Shown here in pieces: positions 15,662 through 46,372 of a stretch of DNA of 64,000 bases. Made by a program: the position numbers and the translations under genes. The notes under the pieces are model-generated. The model did no database searches. It saw nothing but the letters and a program-made list of their open reading frames with translations, and had not been told where the DNA came from. Origin of the DNA: Candidatus Rhodoferax bjergmarkensis (lineage in GTDB: Bacteria; Pseudomonadota; Gammaproteobacteria; Burkholderiales; Burkholderiaceae_C); the NCBI GenBank assembly GCA_016708345.1, contig JADJFX010000007.1, positions 96,339 through 160,338 on the forward strand, given 5' to 3'. Position 1 is the stretch's first letter. Every line of letters starts with the position of its first letter.

Positions 15662-15730
15662 CTCCTGAATTGATAGCTACCTGCACCCGCCAGACGTGCG
15701 CAAAGGCACTATTTGACACACAAACCCGGC
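15658..15730. repeat. REP-like repeat, copy b
   Basis: ATCACTCCTGAATTGATAGCTACCTGCACCCGCCAGACGTGCGCAAAGGCACTATTTGACACACAAACCCGGC. Confidence 0.85.
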
Positions 15731-15814
15731 GTCTTGCGCATGGATTGAGCGTCATGGGCCGGTCCTCACATCGACCGGCTGACGCCCTGCAGCCTGTCCC
15801 AACAGGTGTGCCTT

Positions 15815-20850: not shown

Positions 20851-20853
20851 TCG

Positions 20854-26756: not shown

Positions 26757-26834
26757 TTACCCCTGCAACTCAAACACCGCCATGCTTTCCACATGCGCCG
26801 TGTGGGGGAACATGTTCACCACGCCCGCCATGAC
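26757..26834 (-). pseudogene. rlmD: Last ~25 codons of the 23S rRNA m5U methyltransferase RlmD
   Basis: MAGVVNMFPHTAHVESMAVFELQG*; directly abuts oriIS of copy 2. Confidence 0.8.
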
Positions 26835-28755
26835 GGATAGGCCATTCAACCGCCCTAGCCGAAGTATCGCGCCCCGGTATAGCCTTCGAGCCCCGTGAAA
26901 ACCCTGAGTTTCTTGCCCGCGTTGCTGGTTCACCAGCAAAATGCACCGTCGCCAGAGCCTATAGCGCTGCTGCGGGTGCGTCGGGCGCAGGCCTACCCTG
27001 CAGCGATTCAAAATCGTCGCTTCGCCCATTCACCAACTGATGCGCTGGTCTACCTCGTAGTCGGGGCTGGTTGCTCTGCTAAATCCCAACCCGACTCGCT
27101 TTGCACCCCTTCACCTGTCTGCGCATCACCACCGTCCTCCCACAGCGGTGGCCCGCGTGCCGGGGAGATGTGCGGGGGATCAGTCTCCACCCCGATGTGG
27201 TTCAGAATCTTCTTGATCTGCGTGCCCTCGGTAATGAACGCAATCAGACGCATCTGGCCACCGCACTTTGGGCACAGCAGCGGGAAAACCTCGTAAATGC
27301 GGGCGATCAAAACGGCCCACAGGTAGTGCGCTGGGCGCTTGGGCGGCACCGGCTCTGCAGGCCCGCTCTGGCCTGGGAGCACATTGCCCAGCGGTGCCAC
27401 ACCAGGCGCACCCTCCCCCGTGGTGCTCGGCTGCGCCGTGGCCGGGTGGGCCGGTGCTGCAAGCGCTGTGACCGCAGCCCTGAGCGGCGAATTCGGGGCC
27501 AGCACACCAAAGTAGCGGTGCCGATGCGTGCGTGGTGGCGGCACCAGGGCTGCTATGCGGTCGATCAGCTCCAGCGGTGTGAGGGTGATTTCGTCTACCT
27601 TGGCACCGCGCTTGTCACTGGTGGGCTCGCTGCGCTGCTTGGCACAGCGGTACACCAGGGCTGCGCCCTCTTTGCGAAGGCGGTCCATGGCAAAGGGCGG
27701 GCGGGCGCAGTAGCGCAGTAAGCGCTCCAGCGCAGCGCGGTCGTGTGCTTGGATGCACACACCGGCATCCACCGAGAAGCCGCTGTGCGTGTAGGCCAGC
27801 ATGTCTTTGGCGTCACAACTCTCCAGCAGGCCCCGAGCGACGAAGGCGCGCAGGATGCGTTTTTGCAGGGTGGTCTGCACTTGGGCAACGGCATCCGCAT
27901 CGATGGCGCTGGCCGGGTGGAAGATGACGCTCGGCGCAGGGGCTGGAGGAACATCCGCGTCGCCCTCGCCCGCCACCGCCTCAATCACCCCATCGACCAC
28001 GCAGACGTGGAAATGCACATGCTGGTTCAGGCTGGAGCCGAATCGGTGGATAAAGGCGATGGCCCCGATGTGCAGGGCGGCCTTGTCTACCTGTGCCGCA
28101 CCGGGGCTGTGGGTCTGCAGGCTTTGCGCGATGACCCGCAGAAAAATACGCAGCACCATGCCCAGCACTGCCCCCATCGCGCTGCATGAAGTAGCGCAGC
28201 CGCTTTGGCACCGACAGCACCCACTGGCGCACCGGCAGGCGGGGGAAGACGTGGTCCGTGAGGTGTGCCGCCGTCTCCACCATACGCCGGGTGTTGCACG
28301 AGGGGCACACGCCACGGCCTTTGCAGGAAAAGGCCACAAAGTAGTCGTGGCCGCAGTCGTCACACCAGGCTCTGGCAAAGCCGTGGGCAAAGATGCCGCA
28401 TTCCAGATATTTGCGAAAGGCTTGGCGGACATAGGGCTTTGGGGTGTGGTGGTCGCCCTGCCCGTCGAACTGGCCTGCGCTGGCCAACTCAAACCAGGTC
28501 TCAAAGTGCTCGGCTATGGTTTGGTAGAGCAGGGTTCGCTCAGGGTGGTGCGGGTTGTAGAGTTTGGATTTGCTGCCCGATTGGCCACCCGCTGGCCCAC
28601 CCGCGTGCGGGTGTGAGCAGGCTTGCGCGGTACGGGCGGCGACAGGCATGGTGCAGCGCCAGAGCGAGCGTATTGGCTCGGGCTGGGTGCACCATGTTAC
28701 TGTTTTTATATCCAGTTATATCCGCTTGGTATGGCTTGACAGGCCATCTGCAGAC
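26835..28755 (-). mobile_element. ISCR-type element, copy 2 (type A)
   Basis: oriIS GGATAGGCCATTCAACCGC; transposase in ORFs 27981-28649 and 27050-28504 (frameshifts); hairpin ATGGC-TTGACAG-GCCAT at 28731-28747. Confidence 0.92.
28700..28715. promoter_or_regulatory. LexA box, copy 2
   Basis: taCTGTTTTTATATCCAGtt. Confidence 0.8.
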
Positions 28756-28760
28756 ACTCA

Positions 28761-28834
28761 TTCACTTCTGAATTGATAACTACCTGCGCACGCCAGGCGT
28801 GCGCAAAGGCACTATTTCTATGCATAAACCCGGC
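28761..28834. repeat. REP-like repeat, copy c
   Basis: Perfect hairpin GCGCACG-CCAGG-CGTGCGC. Confidence 0.85.
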
Positions 28835-28918
28835 GTCTTGCGCATGGATTGAGCGTCATGGCTCAAGCCTCACATCGACTCGCTGATGCCCTAATGCCTG
28901 TCCCGACAAGAGTTTCTT

Positions 28919-29070
28919 TCAGCCCCGCATCCACGTATGAAAACGCCCCAGCCAGGCCAGCACTTTGTGGGGTGCATGGGCACGCTTCCATTCCCCGGCC
29001 GCATATTTGTTGGCTTCGGCCAAGGTCGGGTAGGTGTGGATGGTGCCCAGAATTTTGTTCAGCCCCAAGC
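28919..29070 (-). pseudogene. Last ~50 codons of the oxidoreductase
   Basis: LGLNKILGTIHTYPTLAEANKYAAGEWKRAHAPHKVLAWLGRFHTWMRG, nearly identical to 46373-46524. Confidence 0.85.
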
Positions 29071-29315
29071 TCCAGGCTGCACCGACGCTCGCCGGGGCTA
29101 CGGCGTAGCGGTCGCTGGTGCCGTTGCCCACTTGGTCGTAGGCAATGGCGTGGCCGCTGGGGTCGGTGTGACTGCGGGTGTACGGGTCCAGCAGTTGGTG
29201 CGAAACCGCTATCTGCTCAGAAGCGCATTACGCAGGTAGCACGTGGGCTGGAGGCTGGTTTTGTTTAAACTTATTGGGGCTGTGCAGGGTTAATTTGATC
29301 CTGGCCCCTTTTCTC

Positions 29316-30635
29316 CTACGGCGGGAATCCATCTTTGTTGTTAAGCGGCTTCTTTTGTTGCGCCACCCAAGCAATATATTGCGAGGCTAGGACCATTCCT
29401 TGGGTTGACTTGAGACCATTCATAATACTGACGGCGCGTTCTTGAAAGGACGGCGTGTGCCGTATTTCTTCCACACTGTCGAGCAGTTGTTTTTCGCTAA
29501 ATGTTGCGATGTCTATGCGTTTACCGACTCCCAAATAGACGACGCGACTTGCATTATCGGCTTGCTCTCCTCCCACTGGCATGACAATAATTGGTTTTCC
29601 TGAAGCGAGAGCTTCATTTGTGCTGTTATTTCCGCCATGACTGATAAACAGGTCAATTCTGTTGAGCACACTGATTTGCGGGACGCTTTTATAGACGATT
29701 GCATTCTGGGATACCCTGTCCCGCTGTAACTTCTGATAAGCGCCGCCCGCACTGATGATGACCTGGTAGTCTGATGTATCCAGCGCACGCATGATCTTTC
29801 GGAAAACCTCTGGCTTATTATTGAAAACCGTCCCGAGCGAAACATAAATTTTGAATTTATCTGACCGAAATGGGTCAAATGAGAATGCTTCTTCTGCACG
29901 CTTGCCAAAGCAAGGACCAATAAAAAACGTGGAATCCGTCAGGTTATTGCGCGGCGCTTCCATATGTGCGCCACTGACAACCAGATTGAGCCACGGCGAA
30001 TATGGACGCCGCAATATGTCCGGTTCAGTTGGCGTCAAACCAAGAGCCCGTCTTGCTGCATTCATGCGCTTGTCAATTCGGTTCAGTAGCTGGTTCTCCC
30101 GGCGAACATAGCCGTCGTCTGAGTTCGCGTAGTTATCCCCAATCGGCAAACCGCTCCCAAAAGGTGGAATTCCATCACCACGAAAGGGCAGACCACTATG
30201 ATAGATCACGGCATAGGGAATCCCGGCAATTTCAGCCGCCAGGCTCGCAGCTGGAAAGGCAAAATCACTAACCAGAATGTCGGGCTTGTATCGTTCAACG
30301 AATCTCAGGACACATCGCGCGTAATGCTCTACCGCTAGAAAAAACATATTAAAGGCGTGGATGGTCTCGCCATGCCCTGATTTAAATGGCAAGAGAAGGG
30401 AATTCCATATCACGGAAAGGTCGGGCGGCAGGCAATCAACATCAAGCCCGTTTCGCCTGATTCGATGGGGAACCTCAATGGCTGTATCAAATATCTGAAT
30501 GCCTGTTCGTATCCCCTTGACATATGGCACCAAAAATCGGACAGAATGCCCATCGTCTTTCATTTGAGACGCAATACTGAGAAGCGTGTTCACATGCCCC
30601 ACGCTAGGTTGATTCAGGAAGATGATCTTGCTCAT
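29316..30635 (-). CDS. GT1-family (MGT/UDP-glycosyltransferase-like) glycosyltransferase
   Basis: N-terminal GHVN, VYVSLGT-like IYVSLGTV, PSPG box FISHGGNNSTNEALASGKPIIVMPVGGEQ; visibly AT-richer than flanks. Confidence 0.85.
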   Translation of the reverse strand: MSKIIFLNQPSVGHVNTLLSIASQMKDDGHSVRFLVPYVKGIRTGIQIFDTAIEVPHRIRRNGLDVDCLPPDLSVIWNSLLLPFKSGHGETIHAFNMFFLAVEHYARCVLRFVERYKPDILVSDFAFPAASLAAEIAGIPYAVIYHSGLPFRGDGIPPFGSGLPIGDNYANSDDGYVRRENQLLNRIDKRMNAARRALGLTPTEPDILRRPYSPWLNLVVSGAHMEAPRNNLTDSTFFIGPCFGKRAEEAFSFDPFRSDKFKIYVSLGTVFNNKPEVFRKIMRALDTSDYQVIISAGGAYQKLQRDRVSQNAIVYKSVPQISVLNRIDLFISHGGNNSTNEALASGKPIIVMPVGGEQADNASRVVYLGVGKRIDIATFSEKQLLDSVEEIRHTPSFQERAVSIMNGLKSTQGMVLASQYIAWVAQQKKPLNNKDGFPP

Positions 30636-30732
30636 TAATAACCCTCACAGATGATTTCTGGCGACGTTGCCCAAGGTTTGAGATCGGGGGATGCCAACTT
30701 GCTGGCTTGTTGAACCGCCCACTGCGAACAAC

Positions 30733-32668
30733 GGATAGGAAATTCAACCGCATGAGGCCAAGTATGTCACGGGTTTGGGGCCACGAAACACGTCTGGCCC
30801 TGGCAATTTGAGCGCTCGCAGCCGCTCAACGACGAGGCCTTGGGTTGCAAGATGGATTTGGGGCTGGCGCGCACGCAGCTGCTCCCCGCAGCAGTCGAAA
30901 TCACTGCTGGGGTCCATCACCAATTGATGCGCTGATCCACCTCGTAGTCTGGGGCGGGTTGTGCCGCAATGTCCCAATCTGGCTCGACATCAGCACCCTC
31001 GCCCACCTGCGCGTCACAACCCTCCCACAGCGGTGGCCCACGTGCCGGGGCGATGTGTGGGGATCGGACTCCACCCCAATGTGATTGAGAATTTGCAGGA
31101 TATCGGCGCGGTGGGTGATGAACGCAATCAGGCGCATCTGCCCACCGCACATTGGGCACAGCAGCGGGAATACCTCGTAGACGCGTGCAATCAGCACCGC
31201 CCACAGGTAGTGGGCTGGACGCTTGGGCGGCACCGGCTTGGAAGGCTCGGTCTGGGTTGGGAGTGCGTTGCCTTGCTGCACAACCCCAAATGCGCCCACG
31301 CACGCACCCGTGCTGGCTGGCTCGGCCTGCGCAGTGACCGGTTGCGCAGGTAGCACCTGTGCCAGCGCTGTGACCGCACAGCGCAGTGGCGAATTCGGGG
31401 CCAGCACACCAAAGTAGCGGTGCCGGTGCGTGCGCGGCGGCGGCACCAAGGCCGCAATGCGGTCGATCAGCTCCAGCGGTGTGAGGTGCAGTTCGTCTGC
31501 CTTGGCACCGCGCTTGTCACTGGTGGGCTCGCTGCGCTGTTTGGCGCAGCGGTACACCAGGGCTGCGCCTTCTTTATGCAGCCGATCCATGGCAAAGGGT
31601 GGGCGCGCGCAGTAGCGCAGCAGCCGCTCCAGTGCCGCGCGGTCGTGGGCTTCGATGCACACACCCGCATCCACCGAGAAGCCGCTGTGCTGGTAGGCCA
31701 GCATGTCTTTGGCGTCACAGCTCTCCAGCAGCCCCCGGCCGACGAAGGCGCGCAGGATGCGTTTTTGCAGGGTGGTCTGCACTTGGGCCACGGCGGCCTG
31801 GTCAATAGCGGTGGCCGGGTGGTAAATGACACCCGGCGAAGATGCTTGCACCTGGGCAGCAGCCCCGCCCACGCCCGCCACCGCCTCAAACACCCCATCG
31901 ACCACGCAGACGTGGAAATGCACATGCCCGTTCAGACTGGAGCCGAATCGGTGGATAAAGGCGATGGCGCCGATGTGCAGGGCCGCCTTGTCTACTTGTG
32001 CCACACCGGGGCTGTGGGTCTGCAGGGTTTGCGCGATGACCCGCAAGAAGATGCGCAGCACCATGTTCAGTACCGCCCCGTCACGCTGCATGAAGTAGCG
32101 CAGGCGTTTGGGCACGGACAGCACCCATTGGCGCACCGGCAGACGCGGGAATACGTGATCGGTGAGGTGCGCGGCCGTCTCCACCATGCGCCGTGTGTTG
32201 CACGAGGGGCACACGCCCCGGCCTTTGCAGGAATAGGCCACAAAGTAGTCATGCCCGCAGTCATCACAGCGGGCGCGGGCGAAGCCATGGGCAAATATGC
32301 CGCATTCCAGGTATTTGCGAAATGCTTGACGGACATAGGGCTTTGGGGTGTGGTGGTCGCCCTGGCCGTCGAACTGGCCGGAACTTGCCAACTCATGCCA
32401 GGTCTCGAAGTGTTCGGCAATGGTTTGGTACAGCAGGGTTCGCTCAGGGTGGCGCGGGTTGTAGAGCTTGGGCTTGGCGCCCGATTGGCCACCCGCTGAC
32501 CCTCCCGCGTGCGGGGCCGGGTGGGCGTGCGGATGCAGTAGCGTTTGCGCGGAACGGGCAGCGACAAGCATGATGCGGTGCCAGAGCGAGCGTGTGTGCT
32601 CGGATTGGCTGCACCATAGTACTGTTGTTATATCCAGCTATATCAACCTGAATACCGTTTACGGAGGT
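30733..32668 (-). mobile_element. ISCR-type element, copy 3 (type B)
   Basis: oriIS GGATAGGAAATTCAACCGC; transposase ORF 30901-32571 with a frameshift near the 3' end; nested hairpin ACCT..CCGT-TT-ACGG-AGGT at 32646-32668. Confidence 0.92.
32622..32637. promoter_or_regulatory. LexA box, copy 3
   Basis: taCTGTTGTTATATCCAGct. Confidence 0.78.
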
Positions 32669-32671
32669 TCG

Positions 32672-32744
32672 TTCACTCCCTAATTGATAGCTGCCTCCGC
32701 ACGCCAGACGTGCGCAAAGGCACTATTTTGTTCACAAACCCAGC
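32672..32744. repeat. REP-like repeat, copy d
   Basis: TTCACTCCCTAATTGATAGCTGCCTCCGCACGCCAGACGTGCGCAAAGGCACTATTTTGTTCACAAACCCAGC. Confidence 0.85.
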
Positions 32745-32745
32745 G

Positions 32746-35225
32746 TCAACCCCGCCCCAGCACCGCCGCCAATTCCCGACCGGTGTGCGTACCCAGCGCC
32801 ACCAGCGCCTCGGGTGTGCCCGCCGCCACAATGCGCCCGCCACCCGTGCCGCCTTCCGGCCCCAGGTCGATGATCCAGTCGCTCTCGGCAATCACGTCCA
32901 GGTCGTGCTCGATGACGACCACGCTGTGCCCGGCGTTGACCAGGCGGTGCAGCACGTGGATGAACTTTTCCACATCGGCCATGTGCAGGCCCACGGTGGG
33001 TTCGTCCAGCACGTACAGGGTGTGCGGTACTTTTTGCCCGCGTTTGGTGATGTCGTCGCGCACTTTGCTCAGCTCCGTCACCAGCTTGATGCGCTGCGCC
33101 TCGCCACCGCTGAGGGTGGGTGACGGCTGGCCCAGCGTGAGGTAGCCCAGGCCCACGTCTTTGAGCAGTTGCAGCGGGTGGGCAATGGATGGCATGGCGG
33201 CGAAGAAGTCGACCGCTTCGTCCACCTCCATTTGCAACACATCGCCAATGTTTTTGCCGCGCCAAGTCACCGCCTGCGTCTCGGGGTTAAAGCGGGCTCC
33301 TTTGCAGGTTTCGCACAAGACCTTTACATCCGGCAAAAAGCTCATGCCAATGGTGCGTATGCCCTGCCCTTCGCAGCCGGGGCAACGACCCTCGCCGGTG
33401 TTGAAGCTGAAGCGGTTGGCGGCGTATCCGCGCGCCTTGGCTTCCAGGGTGTCGGCAAAGAGTTTGCGGATTGTGTCCCAGAAGCCGATGTAGGTGGCGG
33501 GGCAACTGCGTGGGGTTTTGCCAATGGGGGTTTGGTCGACTTCCAACACGCGGTCTACGGACTCGAACCCGCTCACGCCCTGGCAACCTACCCAAGGCGG
33601 ATGCTCGCCTTTTGATAGCTGCTCTCGCCCGTCCCTTGTGCTCTGCAGGCTTACTACGGCCTGAACATTGGCCAACAACACATCACGCGCCAAAGTCGAC
33701 TTGCCGGAGCCGGAAACGCCGGTGATGGCGACCAGGCGTTTTAACGGGACGTGGGCGGTGACGGCTTGTAGGTTGTGCAGGGTGGCGTTGTGGACGGTTA
33801 GCCAGTTGATGGGGGCGTAGCTGGGCTCCGCGGCTACGGGGCCCGCAGCGGGTGCGCCTGGGGCGGGGGCCTCATGCGCTTGCTGCGCAATCGCAAAATC
33901 GGCACCCACCCCAGGCGCACCCGCTGCTGCCACGGTAGATCTTTCCATGGAGCGGTTGGCCAGTTCGGCGTAGGTGGCGGCAACGCGGTTGCGCTCTACA
34001 AACTCCGCGTTGACCGCTGCGCTGGCAGCTGCATTGGCGGCCGCAACCGCCGCAGCCTTTGCTGCCTTGCCTTTGGGCTTCTGACCCGCATCGCGCCCGC
34101 CCGGTCCGGCGGTCGGAGTCGGTGCGCCGGGGACCGATTTTGCAGTCGCGTAGCGAATGCATGAGGCCCCCGGCGTGCCGGCTCCGGCCGTAGCGAGTGC
34201 TACAACGCCCCCCGCAGCAACCACCGCATCCAGCGACAAAGACTCCGCATAAGAAACCGTAAACCGCCGCAGCGCCAACGGATGCCGCATCGCATGCAAC
34301 AAATACCGCCCGGTCTGCGACTCCGCCGCGTTCTGCACATCGGCCACCGAACCCTGCGCCACCAGCCGCCCACCACGCTTGCCCGCACTGGGCCCAATGT
34401 CGATGATGTGGTCGGCATGGCGAATGGTGTCCTCGTCGTGCTCTACCACCAGCAACGTGTTGCCCAAGTCGCTCAAACGGCGCAAAGCACCCAGCAGAAT
34501 TTTGTTGTCCCGCGCGTGCAGCCCAATGGTGGGCTCGTCCAGCACGTAACACACCCCCTGCAAATTACTACCCAACTGCGCCGCCAGCCGAATGCGCTGT
34601 GCCTCGCCGCCGGACAGCGTGGGTGCTCCCCGGTCCAGCGTGAGGTAGCCCAGGCCCACTTCTTCCAGAAACTGCAAGCGGCTCTGAATCTCGGGCAACA
34701 GGTCGCGCGCAATGTCGGCCTCGCGGCCCGTCATGCCCCCTTCCACCAGCAGGCCCTGCACCCACTCGCGCACATCGCCCACGCTCAGGCGCGCGATGTC
34801 GGTGATGGAAACGCCTGAGGTATGCATAGCAAACCGCACGGCGCGCGCGGTGGCATTCAGGCGCGTGCCGTGGCAGGTGGGGCAGGTGGCGTCATGCAGG
34901 TCTTCCACATCGGCCTCGGCAAAGGTCTGCTCGCGGCCTTGTGTGTCGTCGTCCTTCACGGAGTCATCGAACACCTTGCGCTGCTCTTTGGTCAGCGCCA
35001 CACCAGTGCCCACGCAGTCCGGGCACCAGCCGTGTTTGCTGTTGTAGCTAAACAGGCGCGGGTCCAGCTCGGCGTAAGACGTGGCGCACACCGGGCAGGC
35101 GCGTTGGGTGGAAAACACCTGCACCGTGCCAATCCCCGCGGTGGGTGTGCCCGCCGCCATGGCCTCGCGCAGGCCGTGCATGGCGCTCATCACCTGCACC
35201 ACGCCTTTGGCGTGCGCACGTCCGT
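32746..35225 (-). pseudogene. uvrA: UvrA, 3' part only
   Basis: Zn fingers CPVC/CPDC/CPTC, LSGGEAQRIRLA, GVSGSGKST, IGKTPRSCPATY, LDEPTVGLH; no 5' half, joins the stop of the 560-aa ORF. Confidence 0.88.
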
Positions 35226-35227
35226 CC

Positions 35228-36910
35228 TCAAAGACGCGGCAGACGCGCCAGATCCGCCCTGAAATACTTGCGCTGCGCCACCTGCAGAGCAGCCAGTTGC
35301 GACTCCAGCTTGCGCCGCAGTTCGGCGGCCTCCTTCGCCCTGTCATGCAGCACCAGTTGCCACAGATGCTCCAGCATCGCCGCGCAGCGCTGTATGGGCG
35401 AGATCGTCGGATCGCCCGCGTCTTCGCTCACGGCATCCAGCATGCGACCCGTGAGCGCAAACCAGTCGGGCAACGAGGGCGGCAGCAGCAACTCGCACAA
35501 GGCGTGCAGCTCGCGCACCGCCGGATCGCTGGCATCGCCCTCGTCATGCGCGAGTTCAGCGCGCAGATCCGCAAGACTCCAGATCCGCGAACGCCAATCG
35601 ATCGGTGACTCGGACTGCGTTGTGACCTGCCCATCGCCAACATCGCCCGCATCATCCGCGCCGACCACCGCACCCCGCGCGATGCGGCAGATGTAGATGA
35701 TGTTCCAGTACGAACCCGAACCCAACCCATGCCGCCGCGCGAGCGCCTCGCCCGTGAGAATCCAGCGCACGGCCAGCCTTCTGCCCGCACCCGCCCCCAC
35801 ACGCTGCTGCAAGGCAGGCGCGAGCAGCCACAGCGAATAGCCCAGATTGGACGCCACCGCCTCCATGAGCGTGAGCGAGTCGGTCTCCACCGCACACACC
35901 AGCGCCAGTTGCATGTCGCGCAGCACCTGCACCGCGTCCTGCTCGGGCTGCTCGGGCTGCTCGTGCGATGTGCCCAAAAGCAAGGCCCGCCGCGCCAATG
36001 CACGCAGGTTGAAATACTCGGCCGCCAGACGCGAACTCAGCCGCAGCGCTGCCGCGTCTCCCTCGAAGCGATCGCTCATCTGCTCCAGCCGCATCAGCGC
36101 CGCTGCGCTGCGGTTGTCCTGATGGTCGCACCACGCAAGTCCGATTTCGGACATCGCATCGAGCACCGGCAGACGCTGAAAGGAATCATCATCGCCACGC
36201 TTCAGCGCAGCAGACCGGCAGCGCCGACGCAGCTCCTTGTAGAGCGCCCGCGCCTCATTGCCCTTTCTCGCCAGACGCGCATAACGGGCCTGCAGATTCA
36301 AGGCCCACAGCGGCGATGCGTCACCGCTCGAGTCCGGCACATCGCGATGGTGCACACGCGAAAATCCATCCATCACCTCGGGCAGGGACAGCCGCCCTTC
36401 TTCCGCCGACTGGCGCAGAACGAAGACGCGCATCCACCGCTCAAGCTGCGCTTCAAGCTGTTTTTCCAGTCCTTCGCCCACCGTGCTTTCAGCAGCGCTT
36501 TGCGCCATCCCCGACATGCGCGCCAGCAGACCTTTCTGCACCGCAGGCGTGATCCGTTTTCCACTCACGCAGAACGTCAGTCGCTCCAGCTCCCCTCGCG
36601 CAAGCCAGAACGGGCCATGCACGCGTCCGCGCACCGACAGCGCAGACGCATCCGCGCGCGCATTGCGTCCCCAGCCGACCGTGATTCCCGCCTGCGCAAA
36701 CTGCTTGAACGCACGACTGAGCGCCATCGGGAAAGCCGTTCCGGTCTGCCCCGCAAAGTGCAGGCTGTAGACCGGAACCGTCGACTGCCCCGCACGTCTG
36801 GCAACGGCCAGCGCCAGCAGAAGCAGCACCGCAAAGCGTGATGCAGCCACATCGCCCAAGGTCCACGGAGCTTCAAGCGCGATCTGAATAGCTGGTTTTT
36901 TCGTGGGCAT
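35228..36910 (-). CDS. 560-aa hypothetical protein; putative regulator (possible N-terminal winged helix plus TPR-like helices)
   Basis: Clean ORF divergent from the beta-lactamase; helical repeat-like C-terminus; function inferred from position only. Confidence 0.6.
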   Translation of the reverse strand: MPTKKPAIQIALEAPWTLGDVAASRFAVLLLLALAVARRAGQSTVPVYSLHFAGQTGTAFPMALSRAFKQFAQAGITVGWGRNARADASALSVRGRVHGPFWLARGELERLTFCVSGKRITPAVQKGLLARMSGMAQSAAESTVGEGLEKQLEAQLERWMRVFVLRQSAEEGRLSLPEVMDGFSRVHHRDVPDSSGDASPLWALNLQARYARLARKGNEARALYKELRRRCRSAALKRGDDDSFQRLPVLDAMSEIGLAWCDHQDNRSAAALMRLEQMSDRFEGDAAALRLSSRLAAEYFNLRALARRALLLGTSHEQPEQPEQDAVQVLRDMQLALVCAVETDSLTLMEAVASNLGYSLWLLAPALQQRVGAGAGRRLAVRWILTGEALARRHGLGSGSYWNIIYICRIARGAVVGADDAGDVGDGQVTTQSESPIDWRSRIWSLADLRAELAHDEGDASDPAVRELHALCELLLPPSLPDWFALTGRMLDAVSEDAGDPTISPIQRCAAMLEHLWQLVLHDRAKEAAELRRKLESQLAALQVAQRKYFRADLARLPRL

Positions 36911-37023
36911 CGGTGCTTGTTATGAAAGTTATGAACTCGCATTTTACGAACGAGAACGCCAAGGGCATGCTTGCGGCCATTGTCATCAGCACATTCATTT
37001 TTCACCCACGAAAGCCGCACACC

Positions 37024-37908
37024 ATGCACCGTCGCCAATTCCATCTTCACGCGCTGAGCGCCTGCGCCGCCGCTGCCGCATTGCCGCTGACCGCCTGCTC
37101 CACAGCGCAGAGTCAAAGCGCATCCGAGCCATGGTCCCGCATCGAAAAACAATCCACCGGACGCATGGGCATCGCCGTGCTCGACACCGCCGATGACAAG
37201 TGGGAGGGGCAGCGTCTCGATGAGCGCTTTCCCATGTGCAGCACCTTCAAATGGCTTGCGGCGGCCCATGTACTGCAACGTGTCGATCAGGGCCGCGAAC
37301 AGTTGGATAGACGCATCCGTTTCGAGCGCAAGGCGCTGATCGAATACTCGCCCATCACCGAACCGCAAGCAGGCAAGAACGGCATGACGCTGGCCGAGCT
37401 GTGCCACGCAGCCATCACCGTGAGCGACAACACCGCCGCCAATCTGATTCTGGAAACGCTGGGCGGTCCGCAAGGCATGACGGCATTTGCGCGCTCGCTC
37501 GGTGACGAGGTCACACGTCTCGATCGCTGGGAGCCCGATCTGAACGAAAGCAAACCCGGCGATCCGCGCGACACCACCTCGCCGCGCGCCATGGCCACGC
37601 TGCTGCAGCAACTGGTGCTGCGCGATGTGCTTTCGCCGCGCAGCCGCGAGCTGCTGGTTCAGTGGATGCGTGCGACCAGCACCAATCGCAACCGCCTGGC
37701 CGCAGGTCTTCCGGAAGGCTGGAAGATCGGCAGCAAGACCGGCTCTTCAGGCACGGGATCGGTCAACGATGTGGGCGTGTTCTGGCCACCGAATCGCCCG
37801 CCCATCATCGCGGCGGTCTACATCACACAAGGCACAGGCAGCACCAAGAACATCGAGCCCGCGATTGCCGCCGTCGCGCAGCACATCACGCGCGGCGCTG
37901 CACGCTGA
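37024..37908 (+). CDS. Class A serine beta-lactamase (Tat/lipoprotein-type signal)
   Basis: MCSTFK (S70), SDN, WEPDLNE (E166/N170), KTG; RRQF twin-arginine motif and LTAC lipobox. Confidence 0.95.
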   Translation: MHRRQFHLHALSACAAAAALPLTACSTAQSQSASEPWSRIEKQSTGRMGIAVLDTADDKWEGQRLDERFPMCSTFKWLAAAHVLQRVDQGREQLDRRIRFERKALIEYSPITEPQAGKNGMTLAELCHAAITVSDNTAANLILETLGGPQGMTAFARSLGDEVTRLDRWEPDLNESKPGDPRDTTSPRAMATLLQQLVLRDVLSPRSRELLVQWMRATSTNRNRLAAGLPEGWKIGSKTGSSGTGSVNDVGVFWPPNRPPIIAAVYITQGTGSTKNIEPAIAAVAQHITRGAAR

Positions 37909-37927
37909 ACCGCTTGCGCTTCACACG

Positions 37928-38381
37928 TCAAAGCCCGAGCAGCCCTTCCACCAGCTCGCGCCGCGCGAGCTTGCGTGCGTTGCCGCGCTGCCAGTGGTAG
38001 ATGTCATAACCGTTGGAATACAGCAGCGAGCCATCGGCCAGCACGTCGAACTGCGCAACATGGCTTGCTATCTCTTCGGGCGCGGCATTGCGGCCCGCCT
38101 GCGCGATGAGCTTCCACGACGCAGGCACGAGGTTGCCCGCGTATTCGGGATCGTTGCGCACCTTGGAGAGTTCGATGCGGCGGCCATGCAGCCACAGCGT
38201 GCCGAGGTCCTGATCGAGCTCCGGCGTGCGCGGGCCACCGGCCGAACGCAGCGGCTCCTTGCCATAGAGCATCGAGAACACGTTCAGATAACCGAACACC
38301 GCCTTGCCCAGACGCAGCGGCATCAACAGCGCATCCTTGGCCGCGCCGCCCGCCTTTTCGTGCAGCGGCTTGTCGGCGGAC
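37928..38381 (-). pseudogene. C-terminal fragment of a hypothetical protein cut by oriIS of copy 4
   Basis: Open reading with its own stop at 37928 that runs into oriIS. Confidence 0.6.
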
Positions 38382-40307
38382 GGATAGGAAATTCAACCGC
38401 ATGAGGCCAAGTATGTCACGGGTTTGGGGCCACGAAACACGTCTGGCCCTGGCAATTTGAGCGCTCGCAGCCGCTCAACGACGAGGCCTTGGGTTGCAAG
38501 ATGGATTTGGGGCTGGCGCGCACGCAGCTGCTCCCCGCAGCAGTCGAAATCACTGCTGGGGTCCATCACCAATTGATGCGCTGATCCACCTCGTAGTCTG
38601 GGGCGGGTTGTGCCGCAATGTCCCAATCTGGCTCGACATCAGCACCCTCGCCCACCTGCGCGTCACAACCCTCCCACAGCGGTGGCCCACGTGCCGGGGC
38701 GATGTGTGGGGGATCGGACTCCACCCCAATGTGATTGAGAATTTGCAGGATATCGGCGCGGTGGGTGATGAACGCAATCAGGCGCATCTGCCCACCGCAC
38801 ATTGGGCACAGCAGCGGGAATACCTCGTAGACGCGTGCAATCAGCACCGCCCACAGGTAGTGGGCTGGACGCTTGGGCGGCACCGGCTTGGAAGGCTCGG
38901 TCTGGGTTGGGAGTGCGTTGCCTTGCTGCACAACCCCAAATGCGCCCACGCACGCACCCGTGCTGGCTGGCTCGGCCTGCGCAGTGACCGGTTGCGCAGG
39001 TAGCACCTGTGCCAGCGCTGTGACCGCACAGCGCAGTGGCGAATTCGGGGCCAGCACACCAAAGTAGCGGTGCCGGTGCGTGCGCGGCGGCGGCACCAAG
39101 GCCGCAATGCGGTCGATCAGCTCCAGCGGTGTGAGGTGCAGTTCGTCTGCCTTGGCACCGCGCTTGTCACTGGTGGGCTCGCTGCGCTGTTTGGCGCAGC
39201 GGTACACCAGGGCTGCGCCTTCTTTATGCAGCCGATCCATGGCAAAGGGTGGGCGCGCGCAGTAGCGCAGCAGCCGCTCCAGTGCCGCGCGGTCGTGGGC
39301 TTCGATGCACACACCCGCATCCACCGAGAAGCCGCTGTGCTGGTAGGCCAGCATGTCTTTGGCGTCACAGCTCTCCAGCAGCCCCCGGCCGACGAAGGCG
39401 CGCAGGATGCGTTTTTGCAGGGTGGTCTGCACTTGGGCAACGGCATCCGCATCGATGGCGCTGGCCGGGTGGAAGATGACGCTCGGCGCAGGGGCTGGAG
39501 GAACATCCGCGTCGCCCTCGCCCGCCACCGCCTCAATCACCCCATCGACCACGCAGACGTGGAAATGCACATGCTGGTTCAGGCTGGAGCCGAATCGGTG
39601 GATAAAGGCGATGGCCCCGATGTGCAGGGCGGCCTTGTCTACCTGTGCCGCACCGGGGCTGTGGGTCTGCAGGCTTTGCGCGATGACCCGCAGAAAAATA
39701 CGCAGCACCATGCCCAGCACTGGCCCGCCCTGCTGCATGAAGTAGCGCAGCCGCTTTGGCACCGATAGCACCCACTGGCGCACCGGCAGGCGGGGGAAGA
39801 CGTGGTCCGTGAGGTGTGCCGCCGTCTCCACCATACGCCGGGTGTTGCACGAGGGGCACACGCCACGGCCTTTGCAGGAAAAGGCCACAAAGTAGTCGTG
39901 GCCGCAGTCGTCACACACCAGGCTCTGGCAAAGCCGTGGGCAAAGATGCCGCATTCCAGATATTTGCGAAAGGCTTGGCGGACATAGGGCTTTGGGGTGT
40001 GGTGGTCGCCCTGCCCGTCGAACTGGCCTGCGCTGGCCAACTCAAACCAGGTCTCGAAGTGCTCGGCTATGGTTTGGTAGAGCAGGGTGCGCTCAGGGTG
40101 GCGCGGGTTGTAGAGTTTGGATTTGCTGCCCGATTGGCCACCGCTGGCCCACCCGCGTGCGGGTGTGAGCAGGCTTGCGCGGTACGGGCGGCGACAGGCA
40201 TGGTGCAGCGCCAGAGCGAGCGTATTGGCTCGGGCTGGGTGCACCATGTTACTGTTTTTATATCCAGTTATATCCGCTTGGTATGGCTTGACAGGCCATC
40301 TGCAGAC
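38382..40307 (-). mobile_element. ISCR-type element, copy 4 (B/A hybrid)
   Basis: Ori half matches copy 3, upstream half matches copy 5; frameshift near 39910. Confidence 0.92.
40252..40267. promoter_or_regulatory. LexA box, copy 4
   Basis: taCTGTTTTTATATCCAGtt. Confidence 0.8.
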
Positions 40308-40312
40308 ACTCA

Positions 40313-40386
40313 TTCACTTCTGAATTGATAGCTACCTGCGCACGCCAGGCGTGCGCAAAGGCACTATTTCTATGCATAAACCCAGC
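40313..40386. repeat. REP-like repeat, copy e
   Basis: Same hairpin as copy c. Confidence 0.85.
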
Positions 40387-40470
40387 GTCTTGCGCATGGA
40401 TCGAGCGCCATGGCTCAAGCGTCGCATCGACTCGCTGACGCCCTGCTGCCTGTCCCGACAAGAGTTTCTT

Positions 40471-40897
40471 TTAGCCCCGCATCCACGTGTGAAAGCGCCC
40501 CAGCCAGACCAGCACTTGGTGGGGCGCATGGGCTCGCTTCCATTCCCCGGCCGCATATTTGTTGGCTTCAGCCAATGTTGGGTAGGTGTGGATGGTACCC
40601 AGAATCTTGTTCAGCCCCAGCCCGTGTTTCATGGCCAACACAAACTCCGCCAGCAAATCGCCCGCGTGTTCACCGACGATGGTCACGCCCAATATTCGGT
40701 CTTTGCCGGGCACCGTCAGCACCTTGACAAAACCGTGCGCGGTGCCGTCGGCAATGGCGCGGTCCAGGTCATCAATACCGTATTGTGTGACTTCATAGGC
40801 AACGCCCTTCTCTTTGGCGTCTTGCTCATTGAGGCCCACCCGCGCCACTTCGGGCTCGATAAAGGTGGCCCACGGCACCACCGAATAGTCCACCTTG
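40471..40897 (-). pseudogene. Last ~140 codons of another allele of the oxidoreductase
   Basis: KVDYSVVPWATFIEPEVARVG...HQVLVWLGRFHTWMRG with a TAA stop (the full gene has HKVLAW and TGA). Confidence 0.85.
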
Positions 40898-40936
40898 GCT
40901 GCCACCGCGCGTTGATCGGCGAGCGGCGTGGCTCGC

Positions 40937-43749
40937 TCAAGCCTGCACAGCAAACTTGCCCGGCAGGGTGATGACGGTCTCAAAGGCTCGCAGGTCGGCG
41001 TCAACGTTGTTGTCCAGCAAATGGATTTCAATGCTGCCGCCTTCGTTTTCCAGAAAGCCCTTGACCGCGTCCATGCCCACGCCGCGTCCGGACACTTCGG
41101 TCACTTTTTCGGCGGTCGAGAAGCCGGAGGCAAAAATCATCTTCGCCACCGTTTCAGGTGATGCCGCATTGCCTTCGGGTAGCATGTTTTCTCGATCGCC
41201 ATTTTGCGAATGCGGCCAATGTTCAGGCCCCTGCCATCGTCGCGCAAGCTCAATTTGAGCTTGTCGTCTTCGACGCTCATGGCCAGCTGAATGTTGCCCA
41301 CCTGCGTCTTGCCCGCCGCTTGGCGCACCTCGGCGGTTTCCAGGCCATGGTCAATCGAGTTGCGCAGCAGATGCACGAACAGGTTTTTCAGCAGACCGCC
41401 GATCTGGTTGCGCACCACAATGCCTTGGTCGTCAATGCGGATCACCGGCGGCTCCTTGCCCAGCTCCTTGGCCAGCGAGGGGATGGACTCGATCACTCCA
41501 GAAAGAATCTTGTCGATTTTCTCGGTGCCAATCAGGCTCAGCGTCTTGCCAATTTGGGACAGCGCTGCGCGCATGGCGGCGAGGTCGGTGGCATCCACCG
41601 AATCGACCAGTTGTATCGACTGCGCCACCTGTTCTTTGTCAACCAGCAAGAACTTTTCAACGCCGCCCCGGCGCCCTGGTCCTTTGCGACCCAGCGTGTG
41701 GCTGTTGACCTTGGCGTATTCGTCCACAAGGTTTTTGACCTGCGCCAGTTGCTGCCCCAGCATCTCGGAGTCCCAGACCATCTCGGGGTTCTGACGCAAC
41801 TCATGGTAGGTCTGTTCCGTCTCGTGCACCACGTTGGTCATGTGCAGCAAACCGTAGGTTCTGGCATTGCCCTTGATGGTGTGCATGTTGCGGAACAGTA
41901 CGCCGATGACGCCGTCATCCTTTTGGGCGGTTTTCTGGGTAATGACCTCGTTCTCAGCGACAAACTTGTACGAACTGTCGACGAACTCCTGGAATTTTTC
42001 CTGACTGACGGCCAGGATTTCACCAATGATTTCGAGCTCGCGTTTTTGCGCATTGGCTTCTTTGCCCAAGCGTTTGAGCTCGGTGACGTCGCGGGCGCAT
42101 AGCATGATTTTCTCAACCACATCGTTGGCATCGCAAATGGGCGACCAACTCAGCTCGATCGATTTGACCCGGCCATCTGGCATCGTTTTATCAAATTCGG
42201 TGACCATCAAGTGTGAGTTGAATTCGAAGTTCATCCGGTCCTCTCCAACGCAGGCATCCACCGCCGCTTCTACTTGCGACAGAGGGTCGGAGCCCAGGTT
42301 GGTGTTGGAGAACACCAGTTTCATCAGATTCTTGCCGGCAATCTCGTGCGTTTCAAACATGGTTTCCAGGTAGGCCGAGTACTCGGGGTGGATCACGTTG
42401 TTTGCCAATACGGTCAACACGCCCTGTGGCATGTTCTGCATCATGGCCTGGATGTCGTGGGTCTTTTGGGCCAACTGGGCGGTGCGTTCGGTGACCAGGT
42501 GCTCCAGATTGTCGTTGAGCACCTTCAGATCCTTCACCAGAATCTTGTTTTCCACGAAGGTGTTGGCGAAGGTATTGGAGGCCACATAAAGCATGGTGCC
42601 AACAAATATGGCGGTGCCAAAAAACACCATGGCAAAGCTGCTGATGACGCCCAATGAAAGCAGGATATCGTTGAATCCGGTCACCAAGATGGACGAGATA
42701 CCAACCAGAAGAATGGCGGAACCAGGTTTCCGATGCTGGATCCCTCGAATCAGCTGATAACAACCACCGAATCCGCCTAACAGGACGCCGATGAATAGAA
42801 AGGTTTTCACTGGCTGGAAAAGTTCCAGATTGGGGTGAATGGTCATCGTGGCAATGTACAAACCCGAAGCGCCCAGCAGCACACCGCCAACCCAGTTGAT
42901 CTTGGGCGTGAACTTGTGAAAAAACTGCGTGAAGATGTAGAACAAAAAGATGGCGCAAATACCGGGGTAATGCAGGTAAAGCATGGTCTCCGGCTCAAAC
43001 AGTTTGACGAAATAATCGGCTGGCGCGCCAAAAAATGGAAAGATCAAAATACTGGAAGAGCCGCAAACCAGATAAAGCGCGTACCGGGTCTTGGCGAAAA
43101 CCAGTAGGAAAAAGAATCCAAAAAACAAAATCACGTACGAGATGATGATGCGCGCCTCACCGCCCAGGAGCTGGTAGATGACCACACCACGGTCATGCTG
43201 GTCGTATTTGCGCAATTCAAAGGGCAATTGGTATACCCCCACCATCAGGGGCGTATCAATGCGCATGGCCAGCACGTGGTGCGGCTGACTGATCTTGAAA
43301 CGCACAGGAATGGCCTGAGTTGAAAAATACGGCTCAACATTGATGTTGTTGGGGCGACGGTAAATTTCTTGACCATCGACGTAGATGTTGACTCGCGCCA
43401 TGTAGGCATTGACCAAAAGGACGACTTCTTGCCCCACCAGCGAGGGATGGAATTCGAAGTGCCCGCGGTACCAACCTATGGGAAATACCTTTTTGTCGTT
43501 ATAGACACCTTTCCACGGCCCCGGTGCCTTGGCCAGTCGCCAGCTGGAAGTATCAAGGTTGACGTCCTTGTTTTGGGGGGAATCGTCGCGGGTAAAAAGC
43601 CACTTGCCGCTCAATTTCAGTGGCTTGTCCAGACTTTCAATCTGGATTTTGCAGGAGGTGCAGCCGACTTGATGCGCTGGTGAGTTGGCCGCTGCTTTTG
43701 CGAACAAGGAGCAAAAAATCAGCAGCAGCAATGCGAGTCTCGAAAGCAT
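40937..43749 (-). CDS. Membrane sensor kinase: 7TM-DISM-type sensor + PAS-like + Hpt + CheA-type HATPase (frameshift near 41160)
   Basis: Sugar-binding-like LSGKWLF..GWYRGHF, about seven TMs, Hpt LFRNMHTIKGNAR, HLLRNSIDHG, DDGRG, IFASGFSTAEKVTEVSGRGVGMDAV. Confidence 0.8.
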
Positions 43750-43892
43750 GGGGAAGGTTTCCTGAAGTGGATAGACAAAAAGCTTGAAGTGGTCACTTGA
43801 TTTGTTACAACTTTAACCAGTCATTTACAACTTATCAAGCACTACGCCTCTCAACACACGTGTTTTCCCTTTGTGTGTGGTGCCCAACGCAA

Positions 43893-43917
43893 AGTGGCTG
43901 GGGGCAACCCAGCCACT
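43893..43917 (-). terminator. Intrinsic terminator after the chalcone-isomerase-like gene
   Basis: Perfect 10-bp stem AGTGGCTGGG/CCCAGCCACT followed by TTGCGTT on the minus strand. Confidence 0.6.
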
Positions 43918-44023
43918 GGCGGTAAGCTAAACATGCACTATTTTGGTGAGCCAAACTTGTTGGCCAAATACAGCGCCGCAAAAGCGGTTTGAAGCAAGCG
44001 CTCCGTTTAGAAAAATCTCCGGC

Positions 44024-44282
44024 TTATTGGATGCCCAGCAATTGATCCTTGAGTTTCCAATTGGTCGGCTGTTGCCCCAGCCAGACGCTGGCGATGGCAT
44101 AGAAAAATTCGGGCTCCTTGAATGGCTCGCCCTGCTGCTTGCCCTTGCCGTTAACCACCAGGCCGGTGCCCGGAATCCAGTCCAGCGTCACGACGTCACC
44201 CTCGACAAAAGTCTTGGCTGTGGAAAAAATCTCACCCATGCGCATCAGGCCCGGAATGAGTTTGGACAACTCACTGCGGGAC
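44024..44282 (-). pseudogene. Chalcone-isomerase-like protein, C-terminal fragment
   Basis: LDWIPGTGLVVNGKGKQQGEPFKEPEFFYAIASVWLGQQP; cut by oriIS of copy 5. Confidence 0.7.
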
Positions 44283-46209
44283 GGATAGGCCATTCAACCG
44301 CCCTAGCCGAAGTATCGCGCCCCGGTATAGCCTTCGAGCCCCGTGAAAACCCTGAGTTTCTTGCCCGCGTTGCTGGTTCACCAGCAAAATGCACCGTCGC
44401 CAGAGCCTATAGCGCTGCTGCGGGTGCGTCGGGCGCAGGCCTACCCTGCAGCGATTCAAAATCGTCGCTTCGCCCATTCACCAACTGATGCGCTGGTCTA
44501 CCTCGTAGTCGGGGGCTGGTTGCTCTGCTAAATCCCAACCCGACTCGCTTTGCACCCCTTCACCTGTCTGCGCATCACCACCGTCCTCCCACAGCGGTGG
44601 CCCGCGTGCCGGGGAGATGTGCGGGGGATCAGACTCCACCCCGATGTGGTTCAGAATCTTCTTGATCTGCGTGCCCTCGGTAATGAACGCAATCAGACGC
44701 ATCTGGCCACCGCACTTTGGGCACAGCAGCGGGAAAACCTCGTAAATGCGGGCGATCAAAACGGCCCACAGGTAGTGCGCTGGGCGCTTGGGCGGCACCG
44801 GCTCTGCAGGCCCGCTCTGGCCTGGGAGCACATTGCCCAGCGGTGCCACACCAGGCGCACCCTCCCCCGTGGTGCTCGGCTGCGCCGTGGCCGGGTGGGC
44901 CGGTGCTGCAAGCGCTGTGACCGCAGCCCTGAGCGGCGAATTCGGGGCCAGCACACCAAAGTAGCGGTGCCGATGCGTGCGTGGTGGCGGCACCAGGGCT
45001 GCTATGCGGTCGATCAGCTCCAGCGGTGTGAGGGTGATTTCGTCTGCCTTGGCACCGCGCTTGTCACTGGTGGGCTCGCTGCGCTGCTTGGCACAGCGGT
45101 ACACTAGGGCAGCGCCCTCTTTGCGAAGGCGGTCCATGGCAAAGGGCGGGCGGGCGCAGTAGCGCAGTAAGCGCTCCAGCGCAGCGCGGTCGTGTGCTTG
45201 GATGCACACACCGGCATCCACCGAGAAGCCGCTGTGCGTGTAGGCCAGCATGTCTTTGGCGTCACAACTCTCCAGCAGGCCCCGAGCGACGAAGGCGCGC
45301 AGGATGCGTTTTTGCAGGGTGGTCTGCACTTGGGCAACGGCATCCGCATCGATGGCGCTGGCCGGGTGGAAGATGACGCTCGGCGCAGGGGCTGGAGGAA
45401 CATCCGCGTCGCCCTCGCCCGCCACCGCCTCAATCACCCCATCGACCACGCAGACGTGGAAATGCACATGCTGGTTCAGGCTGGAGCCGAATCGGTGGAT
45501 AAAGGCGATGGCCCCGATGTGCAGGGCGGCCTTGTCTACCTGTGCCGCACCGGGGCTGTGGGTCTGCAGGCTTTGCGCGATGACCCGCAGAAAAATACGC
45601 AGCACCATGCCCAGCACTGGCCCGCCCTGCTGCATGAAGTAGCGCAGCCGCTTTGGCACCGATAGCACCCACTGGCGCACCGGCAGGCGGGGAAGACGTG
45701 GTCCGTGAGGGTGTGCCGCCGTCTCCACCATACGCCGGGTGTTGCACGAGGGGCACACGCCACGGCCTTTGCAGGAAAAGGCCACAAAGTAGTCGTGGCC
45801 GCAGTCGTCACACCAGGCTCTGGCAAAGCCGTGGGCAAAGATGCCGCATTCCAGATATTTGCGAAAGGCTTGGCGGACATAGGGCTTTGGGGTGTGGTGG
45901 TCGCCCTGCCCGTCGAACTGGCCTGCGCTGGCCAACTCAAACCAGGTCTCAAAGTGCTCGGCTATGGTTTGGGTAGAGCAGGGTTCGCTCAGGGTGGCGC
46001 GGGGGACCTTGTAGAGTTTGGATTTGCTGCCCGATTGGCCACCCGCTGGCCCACCCGCGTGCGGGTGTGAGCAGGCTTGCGCGGTACGGGCGGCGACAGG
46101 CATGGTGCAGCGCCAGAGCGAGCGTATTGGCTCGGGCTGGGTGCACCATGTTACTGTTTTTATATCCAGTTATATCCGCTTGGTATGGCTTGACAGGCCA
46201 TCTGCAGAC
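44283..46209 (-). mobile_element. ISCR-type element, copy 5 (type A)
   Basis: oriIS identical to copy 2; 541-aa ORF 44478-46103 with local compensated frameshifts. Confidence 0.92.
46154..46169. promoter_or_regulatory. LexA box, copy 5
   Basis: taCTGTTTTTATATCCAGtt. Confidence 0.8.
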
Positions 46210-46214
46210 ACTCA

Positions 46215-46288
46215 TTCACTTCTGAATTGATAACTACCTGCGCACGCCAGGCGTGCGCAAAGGCACTATTTCTATGCATAAACCCGGC
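46215..46288. repeat. REP-like repeat, copy f
   Basis: Identical to copy c. Confidence 0.85.
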
Positions 46289-46372
46289 GTCTTGCGCATG
46301 GATTGAGCGTCATGGCTCAAGCCTCACATCGACTCGCTGATGCCCTAATGCCTGTCCCGATAAGAGTTTCTT

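Follow-up and report, generated by a model that had tools for sequence, protein, structure and literature searches.

We analysed a 64,000-nucleotide stretch of DNA from Candidatus Rhodoferax bjergmarkensis (hereafter the window; C6:96339-160338 of a 4.96-Mb draft genome, G000), which contains five copies of an insertion sequence common region (ISCR) element of the IS91 superfamily, and found that four of them adjoin a repetitive extragenic palindromic (REP) sequence at exactly the same base. In our view this REP is probably inherited cargo of one ancestral junction, which was spread by one-ended transposition. The first-pass annotation of this DNA had noted that two different ISCR types end at the same point of a REP and had proposed that the REP is either targeted by the element or used as a terminator.

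Five ISCR copies and a REP joined in one register

The five transposase (tnp) genes are same-orientation, minus-strand open reading frames located at 19207-20796, 27050-28504, 30901-32571, 38566-39954 and 44478-46103. A domain search found Y2_Tnp in all five (E = 3e-39 to 2e-38) and Zn_Tnp_IS91 in four of them; in copy 2 a stop codon separates the 5' part of the gene. All the elements lie on the minus strand. Copy 2 (26833..28765) and copy 5 (44281..46219) represent type A: the former extends from oriIS ACGGATAGGCC... to ter ...CATTCAC and has the tnp gene split by the stop codon, the latter is intact, and the two are 99% identical, an identity that includes 240 bp past the REP. Copy 3 (30731..32676), of type B, is intact from oriIS to ter ...GGTTCGTTCAC. 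Copy 4 (38380..40317) has a frameshifted tnp and is an A/B recombinant: towards the 3' end it matches copy 3 at 100% identity, and towards the 5' end type A at 99-100%. Finally, copy 1 (19174..20889), of type C, comprises tnp and a ter end (...GCGCGCAAATAAC|, at 20887-20889) without a REP and without an oriIS motif, and is 3'-truncated.

The bottom-strand junction of copies 2-5 falls at the same REP base, ...TTCAC|TCCTGAATTGATAGC (longer stretch TCCTGAATTG; the vertical bar marks the boundary), and one ~70-nt repeat adjoins all four copies in identical register. Read on the plus strand, the type A junction is ...CACTCATTCAC|TTCTGAATTGATA at 28765/28766, 40317/40318 and 46219/46220, and the type B junction is ...GGTTCGTTCAC|TCCCTAATTGATAGC at 32676/32677. 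The ter regions are identical among copies 2, 4 and 5, whereas copy 3 differs over 40-50 nt of ter-proximal sequence. The REP beside copy 2 (28766..28838, plus strand; TTCTGAATTGATAAC...GCGCACGCCAGGCGTGCGC...AAACCCGGCGTCT) belongs to a lineage that we call ISCR-linked, as does the one beside copy 3 (32677..32747, plus strand), which overlaps the stop codon of a uvrA-like cargo gene. Those beside copies 4 and 5 are found at 40318-40390, within a unit of 40318..40897, and at 46220-46292, within a unit of 46220..47815.

To place these REPs in their genomic context, a REP profile was trained solely on copies distant from ISCR DNA, and its non-overlapping matches were counted genome-wide. This REP-like family comprises 778 matches in the 4.96-Mb genome, including a major class, TTTGCTATnAATTnATAGCTGCTTGCGCA-N8-GTGCGCAAA, with 519 copies and a minor 'CTCC' class, TTTACTCCTGAATTGATAGC, with 52 (7%). 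The REP hairpin is 9 bp long and folds at -15 kcal/mol (z = -3 against 200 shuffles, 0/200 of which were as good). Because REPs cover only ~1% of the genome, the four exact-register adjacencies are not explained by chance. The observation that types A and B meet the same REP point was thus confirmed for copies 2-5. The adjacency of element and REP also stood, but its proposed position, 'TTCA|CTYC', is better placed 2 nt further to the right (GGA|GTGA on the tnp strand). The terminal hairpins that had been described for types A and B do exist, but they are weak (-4.5 and -3.3 kcal/mol) and do not surpass shuffled sequence (z of -0.2 and -0.6). Two other readings were discarded. An RNA leader or Rfam family was rejected, as an Rfam search of the REP returned no family match and a Shine-Dalgarno/start-codon reading failed on other copies, and a junction-spanning hairpin of type A (ATTCA-CTTC-TGAAT) was dropped because it is not kept in types B and C.

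The ends of the element proper

The ori end of copies 2-5 reads |ACGGATAGG(CC/AA)ATTCAACCGC on the plus strand, at 26833, 30731, 38380 and 44281, and each is preceded by a different flank. The corresponding gene-strand motif, GCGGTTGAATTTCCTATCCGT, is kept at ~90 ends in other genomes, with unrelated DNA following each, and the GT after ...CCTATCC is invariant at ori ends. At the opposite side, every ter end begins with GTGA, GTAT or GTTA, and all gene-strand junctions read ...AGCTATCAATTCAGGA|GT(GA/AT/TA)..., where the GT may belong either to the target or to the element. The ter ends of different sub-clades have only NTNA in common.

Two copies that lack a REP, copy 1 of the window and locus L133, were informative in this respect. 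Their similarity to REP-linked relatives ends within 2 nt of the REP junction, and the terminal 40 nt of copy 1 match loci L063, L075 and L044 up to a point that coincides exactly with the REP join of those loci. As REP-less copies end at the junction, and as the GTNN of the ter end mirrors the GT after oriIS, we place the REP outside the element proper and, on these alignments, the true element end at GGA|GTNN. In IS91, too, the ter cleavage tetranucleotide resembles the target tetranucleotide beside oriIS (PMC13181058). On this reading, the element proper would have oriIS (|ACGGATAGG... on the bottom strand) at one end and terIS at the other, the latter opening with the four top-strand bases GTNN (GGA|GTGA, GTAT or GTTA), in agreement with the invariant GT found after every oriIS end. 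No target duplication was found at the four window copies examined (2-5).

Besides complete elements, we observed mini ISCRs consisting of ter and ori ends only, at C8:184710-184894 of this genome (~115 nt) and at L161 (G160:C1:1663000-1663500; ~85 nt), each of which still adjoins its REP. Body-less oriIS remnants of ~60 nt are present in this genome at C37:158648-158712, C38:3136-3200, C38:7020-7084, C20:68492, C34:126848 and C14:30255, three of them with a common flank.

Common ancestry of the REP-linked copies

Pairwise identity among the eight ISCR-linked REPs of this genome is 72-89%, compared with a mean identity of 62% for random REP pairs (standard deviation 5.6; 99th percentile 74.6%). 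The identity between the type A and type B REPs (83%) equals that between the type A and type B elements (82.5%), which indicates that REP and element diverged together, and the distances between tnp genes are correlated with those between REPs (Mantel r = 0.26, p = 0.014). A second line of evidence is provided by the REP hairpin GCGCACGCCAGACGTGCGC. Allowing up to one mismatch, it occurs seven times in this genome, all of them beside ISCR DNA, and 59 times in a metagenome-assembled genome of Aalborgicola lynettensis (G001), the carrier of the sister elements L074 and L079. Judging from this distribution, the GCGCACGCCAGACGTGCGC REP type is foreign to this genome and native in Aalborgicola. 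In keeping with carriage between genomes, an element of Limnohabitans (G005) retains a piece of the REP in a genome that has only three REP-core matches.

A third line of evidence comes from the DNA beyond the REP. Behind the REP of L079 lies the 3' end of a ubiD-like gene, and L130 and L161, which belong to a different ISCR sub-clade in Rhodoferax, are also located at a ubiD 3' end (UbiD_C, E = 8e-25). The far end of the type B REP (GTTCACAAACCCAGCGTC) is identical over 18/18 nt to the ubiD-end sequence of L079. In addition, the window contains a solo relic at 11733..11945, a junction that was absent from the first-pass annotation. It consists of a ter relic of ~45 nt (11733-11777), a REP of the ISCR-linked lineage (11778-11848) and, directly past it, ~100 nt (11849-11945) that encode a UbiD C-terminus (GETQRE..MTPEVT..WQ..GL). 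The claim of a ubiD relic rests on the type B/L079 identity and on this ~100-nt relic; the 12-15 nt past the REP alone were rejected as a weak indication, since generic REPs have a similar A/T-rich tail.

Taken together, these comparisons identify types A and B, the 11733 relic and the remnants on contigs C3, C8 and C19 as descendants of one ubiD-REP-ISCR ancestor. A single ancestral A/B junction was the outcome that had been named in advance as contradicting REP targeting or termination, and the matching REP and element divergence, the foreign hairpin and the ubiD-REP-ISCR arrangement all agree with it. In this ancestor, whose host genome most likely resembled that of Aalborgicola, in which the REP type is native, a single REP would have adjoined the ter end downstream of the ubiD-like gene.

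DNA carried beyond the REP

Beyond the REP, copies 2, 4 and 5 and a further site at 15638 share the same lpd-like gene, which encodes a pyridine-nucleotide-disulphide oxidoreductase, with 86-99% identity. Copy 2 retains a 3' fragment of 232 bp (28839..29070, minus strand), the shortest of a nested series. The fragment beside copy 4 is 507 bp long, extends to 40897 and breaks off after ...CACCTTG, and copy 5 is accompanied by the full gene (46373-47815, minus strand), resulting in nested flank lengths of 232, 507 and ~1250 bp for copies 2, 4 and 5. The 15638 site (15648..17002) comprises a ter-like remnant of ~13 nt (15648-15662; GATGCGGGCA-ATCAC, compare L074), a REP (15663-15735) and a broken lpd-like paralogue that is 88% identical to the copy-5 flank. 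It is probably an ISCR scar, with a ter-remnant score of 6 that falls within the control range. Because the same lpd-like gene lies beyond the REP, copies 2, 4 and 5, the C39 site and this scar count as one junction, and the scar (given as 15642 in the first-pass annotation) cannot serve as the third junction that it had been taken for. The two lpd-like fragments end after ...CCCCAAGC (29070/29071) and ...CACCTTG (40897/40898); CAAG and CTTG are IS91 target/termination tetranucleotides, although with two cases only this may be due to chance.

A comparable series was found in G001, which harbours at least 11 units of the form [ISCR or ter relic]-REP-ubiD, organised in two arrays. Measured from the start of the REP, the ubiD relics of these units extend to 83, 104, 114, 223+, 235, 275, 384, 428, 434, 434 and >1600 nt, amounting to ~0 to >1500 nt of ubiD. 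Nested ter-side flank lengths are the signature of one-ended (read-through) transposition, from which we infer that this process co-mobilised ter-side DNA. Read-through transposition, presumably by a rolling-circle mechanism, would have copied ISCR and REP together with variable lengths of the DNA beyond, thus bringing the same REP behind unrelated genes (lpd-like, uvrA-like plus beta-lactamase, and PIN toxin genes). Recombination between copies, as in the A/B mosaic of copy 4, and deletions would have given rise to the scars.

The distribution of these endpoints bears on the proposal that the REP is a secondary terminator, that is, that read-through on the displaced strand is halted just past the REP, either by its hairpin or by a ter-like motif at the far edge, and that 'ISCR + REP' behaves as a longer element with an end of its own. 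This is compatible with inherited cargo, and we entertain it tentatively, as somewhat less probable than its absence. In L079 the far edge of the REP contains a ter-like motif, TTCGTTCAC, identical to the type B ter end. Furthermore, ~6/16 flank endpoints lie at ~78-87 nt from the REP start (L074, C19, L171:6089, the C3 remnant, type B and type A), where rough arithmetic would expect ~0.3 per 10-nt window, the other endpoints being scattered from 104 to >1600 nt. In types A and B and the C3 remnant, unrelated far flanks start within 3 nt of one another, and a hairpin as strong as that of the REP would also favour termination. However, at least 10 units read directly through the REP, the clustered endpoints do not fall at a single base and have no common tetranucleotide, and the cluster is 45-50 nt away from the REP hairpin. 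Moreover, a single truncated ancestor may underlie types A and B and the C3 remnant, in which case there would be fewer independent events. The earlier suggestion of a terminator may therefore hold: the accumulation of endpoints within ~10 nt past the REP speaks for it, and read-through beyond the REP in many copies speaks against it. As an optional addition to the inherited-cargo model, the far edge of the REP could be a favoured secondary stop.

REP targeting and the search for empty sites

An alternative explanation is true REP targeting, in which the Y2 transposase would prefer GTNN at the edge of CTCC-class REPs (...CAGGA|GTAAAT) and each sub-clade would derive from a separate primary insertion. 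We regard this as unlikely, although several observations are in its favour. Junction REPs belong to the CTCC subclass in all ~11 sub-clades and are joined in the same register, even though this class makes up 7% of the REPs here; the junction-proximal REP motif is conserved as in the REP subclass itself; CTCC-class REPs have GTAA precisely at the junction point; and other IS families are known to target REPs (PMC1525189).

REP neighbours were scored against ter ends of other genomes, with the 99th percentile of a control class as cut-off. None of the ~43 native CTCC-class REPs of this genome was found to be joined to an ISCR or a ter remnant by this scoring, and the only REPs to exceed the cut-off were seven of the known ISCR-linked ones, while scores of 8 for type B and 6 for the 15638 site did not reach it. 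Some CTCC-class REPs appeared by eye to have ter-like extensions (TCTGCAGGG...), but an interpretation of this class as general ISCR footprints was rejected, as the control scoring passed ISCR-linked REPs only. At the other end of the element, none of 90 ori ends abuts a REP within 10 nt, and the ori flanks of these 90 ends do not start with the REP remainder expected from a primary insertion; only L039 starts with GTAAT. In every testable case the REP arrived with the element, and the association of two sub-clades with ubiD speaks for descent rather than for repeated hits. Targeting by the ISCRs of the window, as originally put forward, is therefore unsupported: the A/B junction is ancestral and shared, the native REPs are empty and no ori end adjoins a REP.

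The survey of homologous loci gave a mixed answer. In the best 80 loci fetched, to any of which the transposase protein is at most ~83-88% identical, the REP junction was present in 15 and absent from 65, an absence that had been stated beforehand as evidence against targeting. Within the genus, where 33/144 genomes carry the tnp gene, 8/10 loci with an intact 5' region do have the REP. Approximately 45/80 loci represent a widespread variant beside another lpd gene, with ragged ter sides. A near-identical REP-less variant (L001-L023, L027, L030, L031, L048 and others) adjoins the 3' end of a dihydrolipoamide-dehydrogenase-like gene and spans many genera, including Tepidicella, Herbaspirillum, Hydrogenophaga and Polaromonas; in a few copies (Achromobacter, Sphingopyxis and Sphingobium) the ter side is cut by other DNA.

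Some results weigh against inherited cargo as a sufficient explanation. No clean empty site was recovered for any copy. At the uvrA locus of copy 3, relatives either lack a REP or have one in the opposite orientation; for the C3 remnant, joined flanks found no collinear site in 80 genomes of the genus; and a pooled flank query of seven junctions against the genus, with two candidates scored per genome, yielded no empty site but led to the ubiD locus. There, genome G158 lacks an ISCR but has a REP at the corresponding position and in matching orientation, which fits an original insertion beside a pre-existing REP and lends support to targeting; its far-side flanks are not collinear. In addition, the 16 REP nucleotides nearest to the junction (AGCTATCAATTCAGGA) are almost invariant in ~11 sub-clades, while no alignment between sub-clades is possible for the adjoining 40-nt element spacer, and the remaining part of the REP shows differences of 30-50%. 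The sub-clades also carry different REP variants, of the GGGCT..AGCCC or the GCGCACG..CGTGCGC type. Purely neutral hitch-hiking does not predict 16 almost invariant nucleotides, suggesting either a function in the element or repeated sampling of REPs. Finally, copy counts are lower bounds, since draft assemblies break at ISCR/REP repeats. One way to accommodate these points would be that the Y2 transposase of this Comamonadaceae ISCR clade reads the edge of CTCC-class REPs, as a GTNN target or as a termination signal. This would explain the almost invariant 16 bases, the CTCC-only junctions and the accumulation of endpoints past the REP, and would couple an IS91-family enzyme functionally to REPs, alongside the Y1 RAYTs, but we consider it doubtful.

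The conservation of the proximal and the variability of the distal part of the REP would also fit homologous recombination or gene conversion between REPs, which could shift the ter junction to new REP sites by exchanging the distal part and the flank, and recombination between copies does occur, as in copy 4. Nevertheless, generic REPs share a 15-nt core and ~62% identity, too little for efficient homologous exchange, and the ISCR-linked REPs are foreign along their whole length, with no chimeras with native REPs. This makes such exchange very improbable as the source of the junctions.

Less probable still, and hardly credible to us, is that the REP was the mobile partner and that a RAYT-type enzyme moved REPs into the ISCR ter end. 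The genome encodes two Y1_Tnp matches above the cut-off, of which just one has a REP, a single one, within 1.5 kb, and generic REPs are present at the truncated 5' end and directly at the ori end of the C3 ISCR remnant. Yet all the ISCR-linked REPs belong to a single lineage, of which the rest of the genome has no member, the NTNA shared by ter ends of different sub-clades is too little for a target, and REP-less ISCR copies exist. As to the C3 remnant itself (C3:366115-367500 of this genome), it is a 5'-truncated ISCR with one REP in the opposite orientation at the truncation and a second one after the ori end (CCTTTCCGT|AATTTGCTATG...).

Cargo, LexA-type boxes and other features

The cargo between copies 3 and 4 (window 32746-38379) consists of a uvrA-like ABC ATPase gene and a class A beta-lactamase gene. 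The latter is located at 36913-37908 (Beta-lactamase2, E = 5e-53), and the former, a paralogue of foreign origin, shares 82% identity with the native gene (C9:49199-50244). Directly past the ubiD relic of the 11733 junction, on the minus strand, a PIN-domain toxin gene is located at 11930-12352 and a Phd/YefM-type antitoxin gene at 12372-12800.

Each ISCR copy of the window, and all related loci, have a LexA-type box (CTGGATATAA followed by CAGTA; CTG-N10-CAG) 40-50 nt inside the ter end. In the window this sequence motif is present on the minus strand at 28698-28715, 32620-32637, 40250-40267, 46152-46169 and 20831-20848. SOS control via a LexA-type box was recently reported for ISCR1, 2 and 8 (PMC13393415).

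Elsewhere in the genome, at C39:3380-5456, an insertion sequence of ~1.98 kb with terminal inverted repeats GTGCCTGACCGAAAACCCC... lies inside an ISCR-linked REP, with an apparent 4-bp GTTA duplication. Contig C39 appears to be error-prone, with 1-nt indels and stop codons in tnp.

Comparison with known systems

ISCRs move resistance and catabolic genes, and the poor definition of their ter ends makes the DNA that they pick up unpredictable. The clade studied here offers a sequence-defined ter end together with a natural read-through series whose endpoints are mapped, and REP plus ubiD relic constitute a built-in marker to trace units from Aalborgicola-like genomes to Rhodoferax. Our results also call for caution, as an apparent 'host REP' beside a mobile element can be cargo, and targeting does not follow from adjacency alone. 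An influence of the REP edge on termination or on the choice of target, if confirmed, would connect IS91-family enzymes with REPs for the first time.

The elements have a Y2 plus a zinc domain, distinct ends without terminal inverted repeats and the signature of one-ended transposition, as expected for the IS91/ISCR group. Like ISCR1, ISCR2 and ISCR8, they combine a Y2 HUH transposase carrying an N-terminal zinc-binding domain with a conserved oriIS downstream of the gene, form same-orientation arrays with captured genes between the copies (a class A beta-lactamase gene among them in this case), and have a LexA-type box in the ter-side promoter region. Unlike in those elements, the ter end of this Comamonadaceae sub-clade can be defined, as GGA|GTNN, and immediately outside it lie a REP and often a ubiD relic. 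As in IS91 and IS1294, termination appears to fail, so that ter-adjacent DNA is co-mobilised with nested flank lengths (PMC13181058). In contrast to these two, the tetranucleotides here are GTNN instead of CTTG, GTTC or CTCG, and orf121 is missing; a clustering of endpoints just past a REP is undescribed for IS91.

The REPs, for their part, are short, mostly intergenic, hairpin-forming and present in hundreds of copies, as is typical of such families. Insertion sequences that target REPs include IS1397/ISKpn1 (IS3) and ISPpu9/ISPpu10/ISPa11 (IS110) (Tobes & Pareja 2006, PMC1525189; PMC12288879). The ISCRs resemble them in being found at a fixed REP position. However, whereas REP-targeting elements occupy many native host REPs, independent insertions in many native REPs were not found in this genome, where every junction involves a single foreign REP lineage and the native copies are unoccupied. 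Nor is the transposase chemistry the same, being HUH Y2 here and DDE or DEDD in those elements. The REP/RAYT system (TnpA-REP, Y1 HUH) likewise brings together an HUH enzyme and REP hairpins, and this genome contains hundreds of REPs and two Y1_Tnp genes. Unlike in REP/RAYT, the sequences examined here give no sign of REP recognition by the Y2 enzyme, and the REP family is far more abundant than the ISCRs and largely independent of them.

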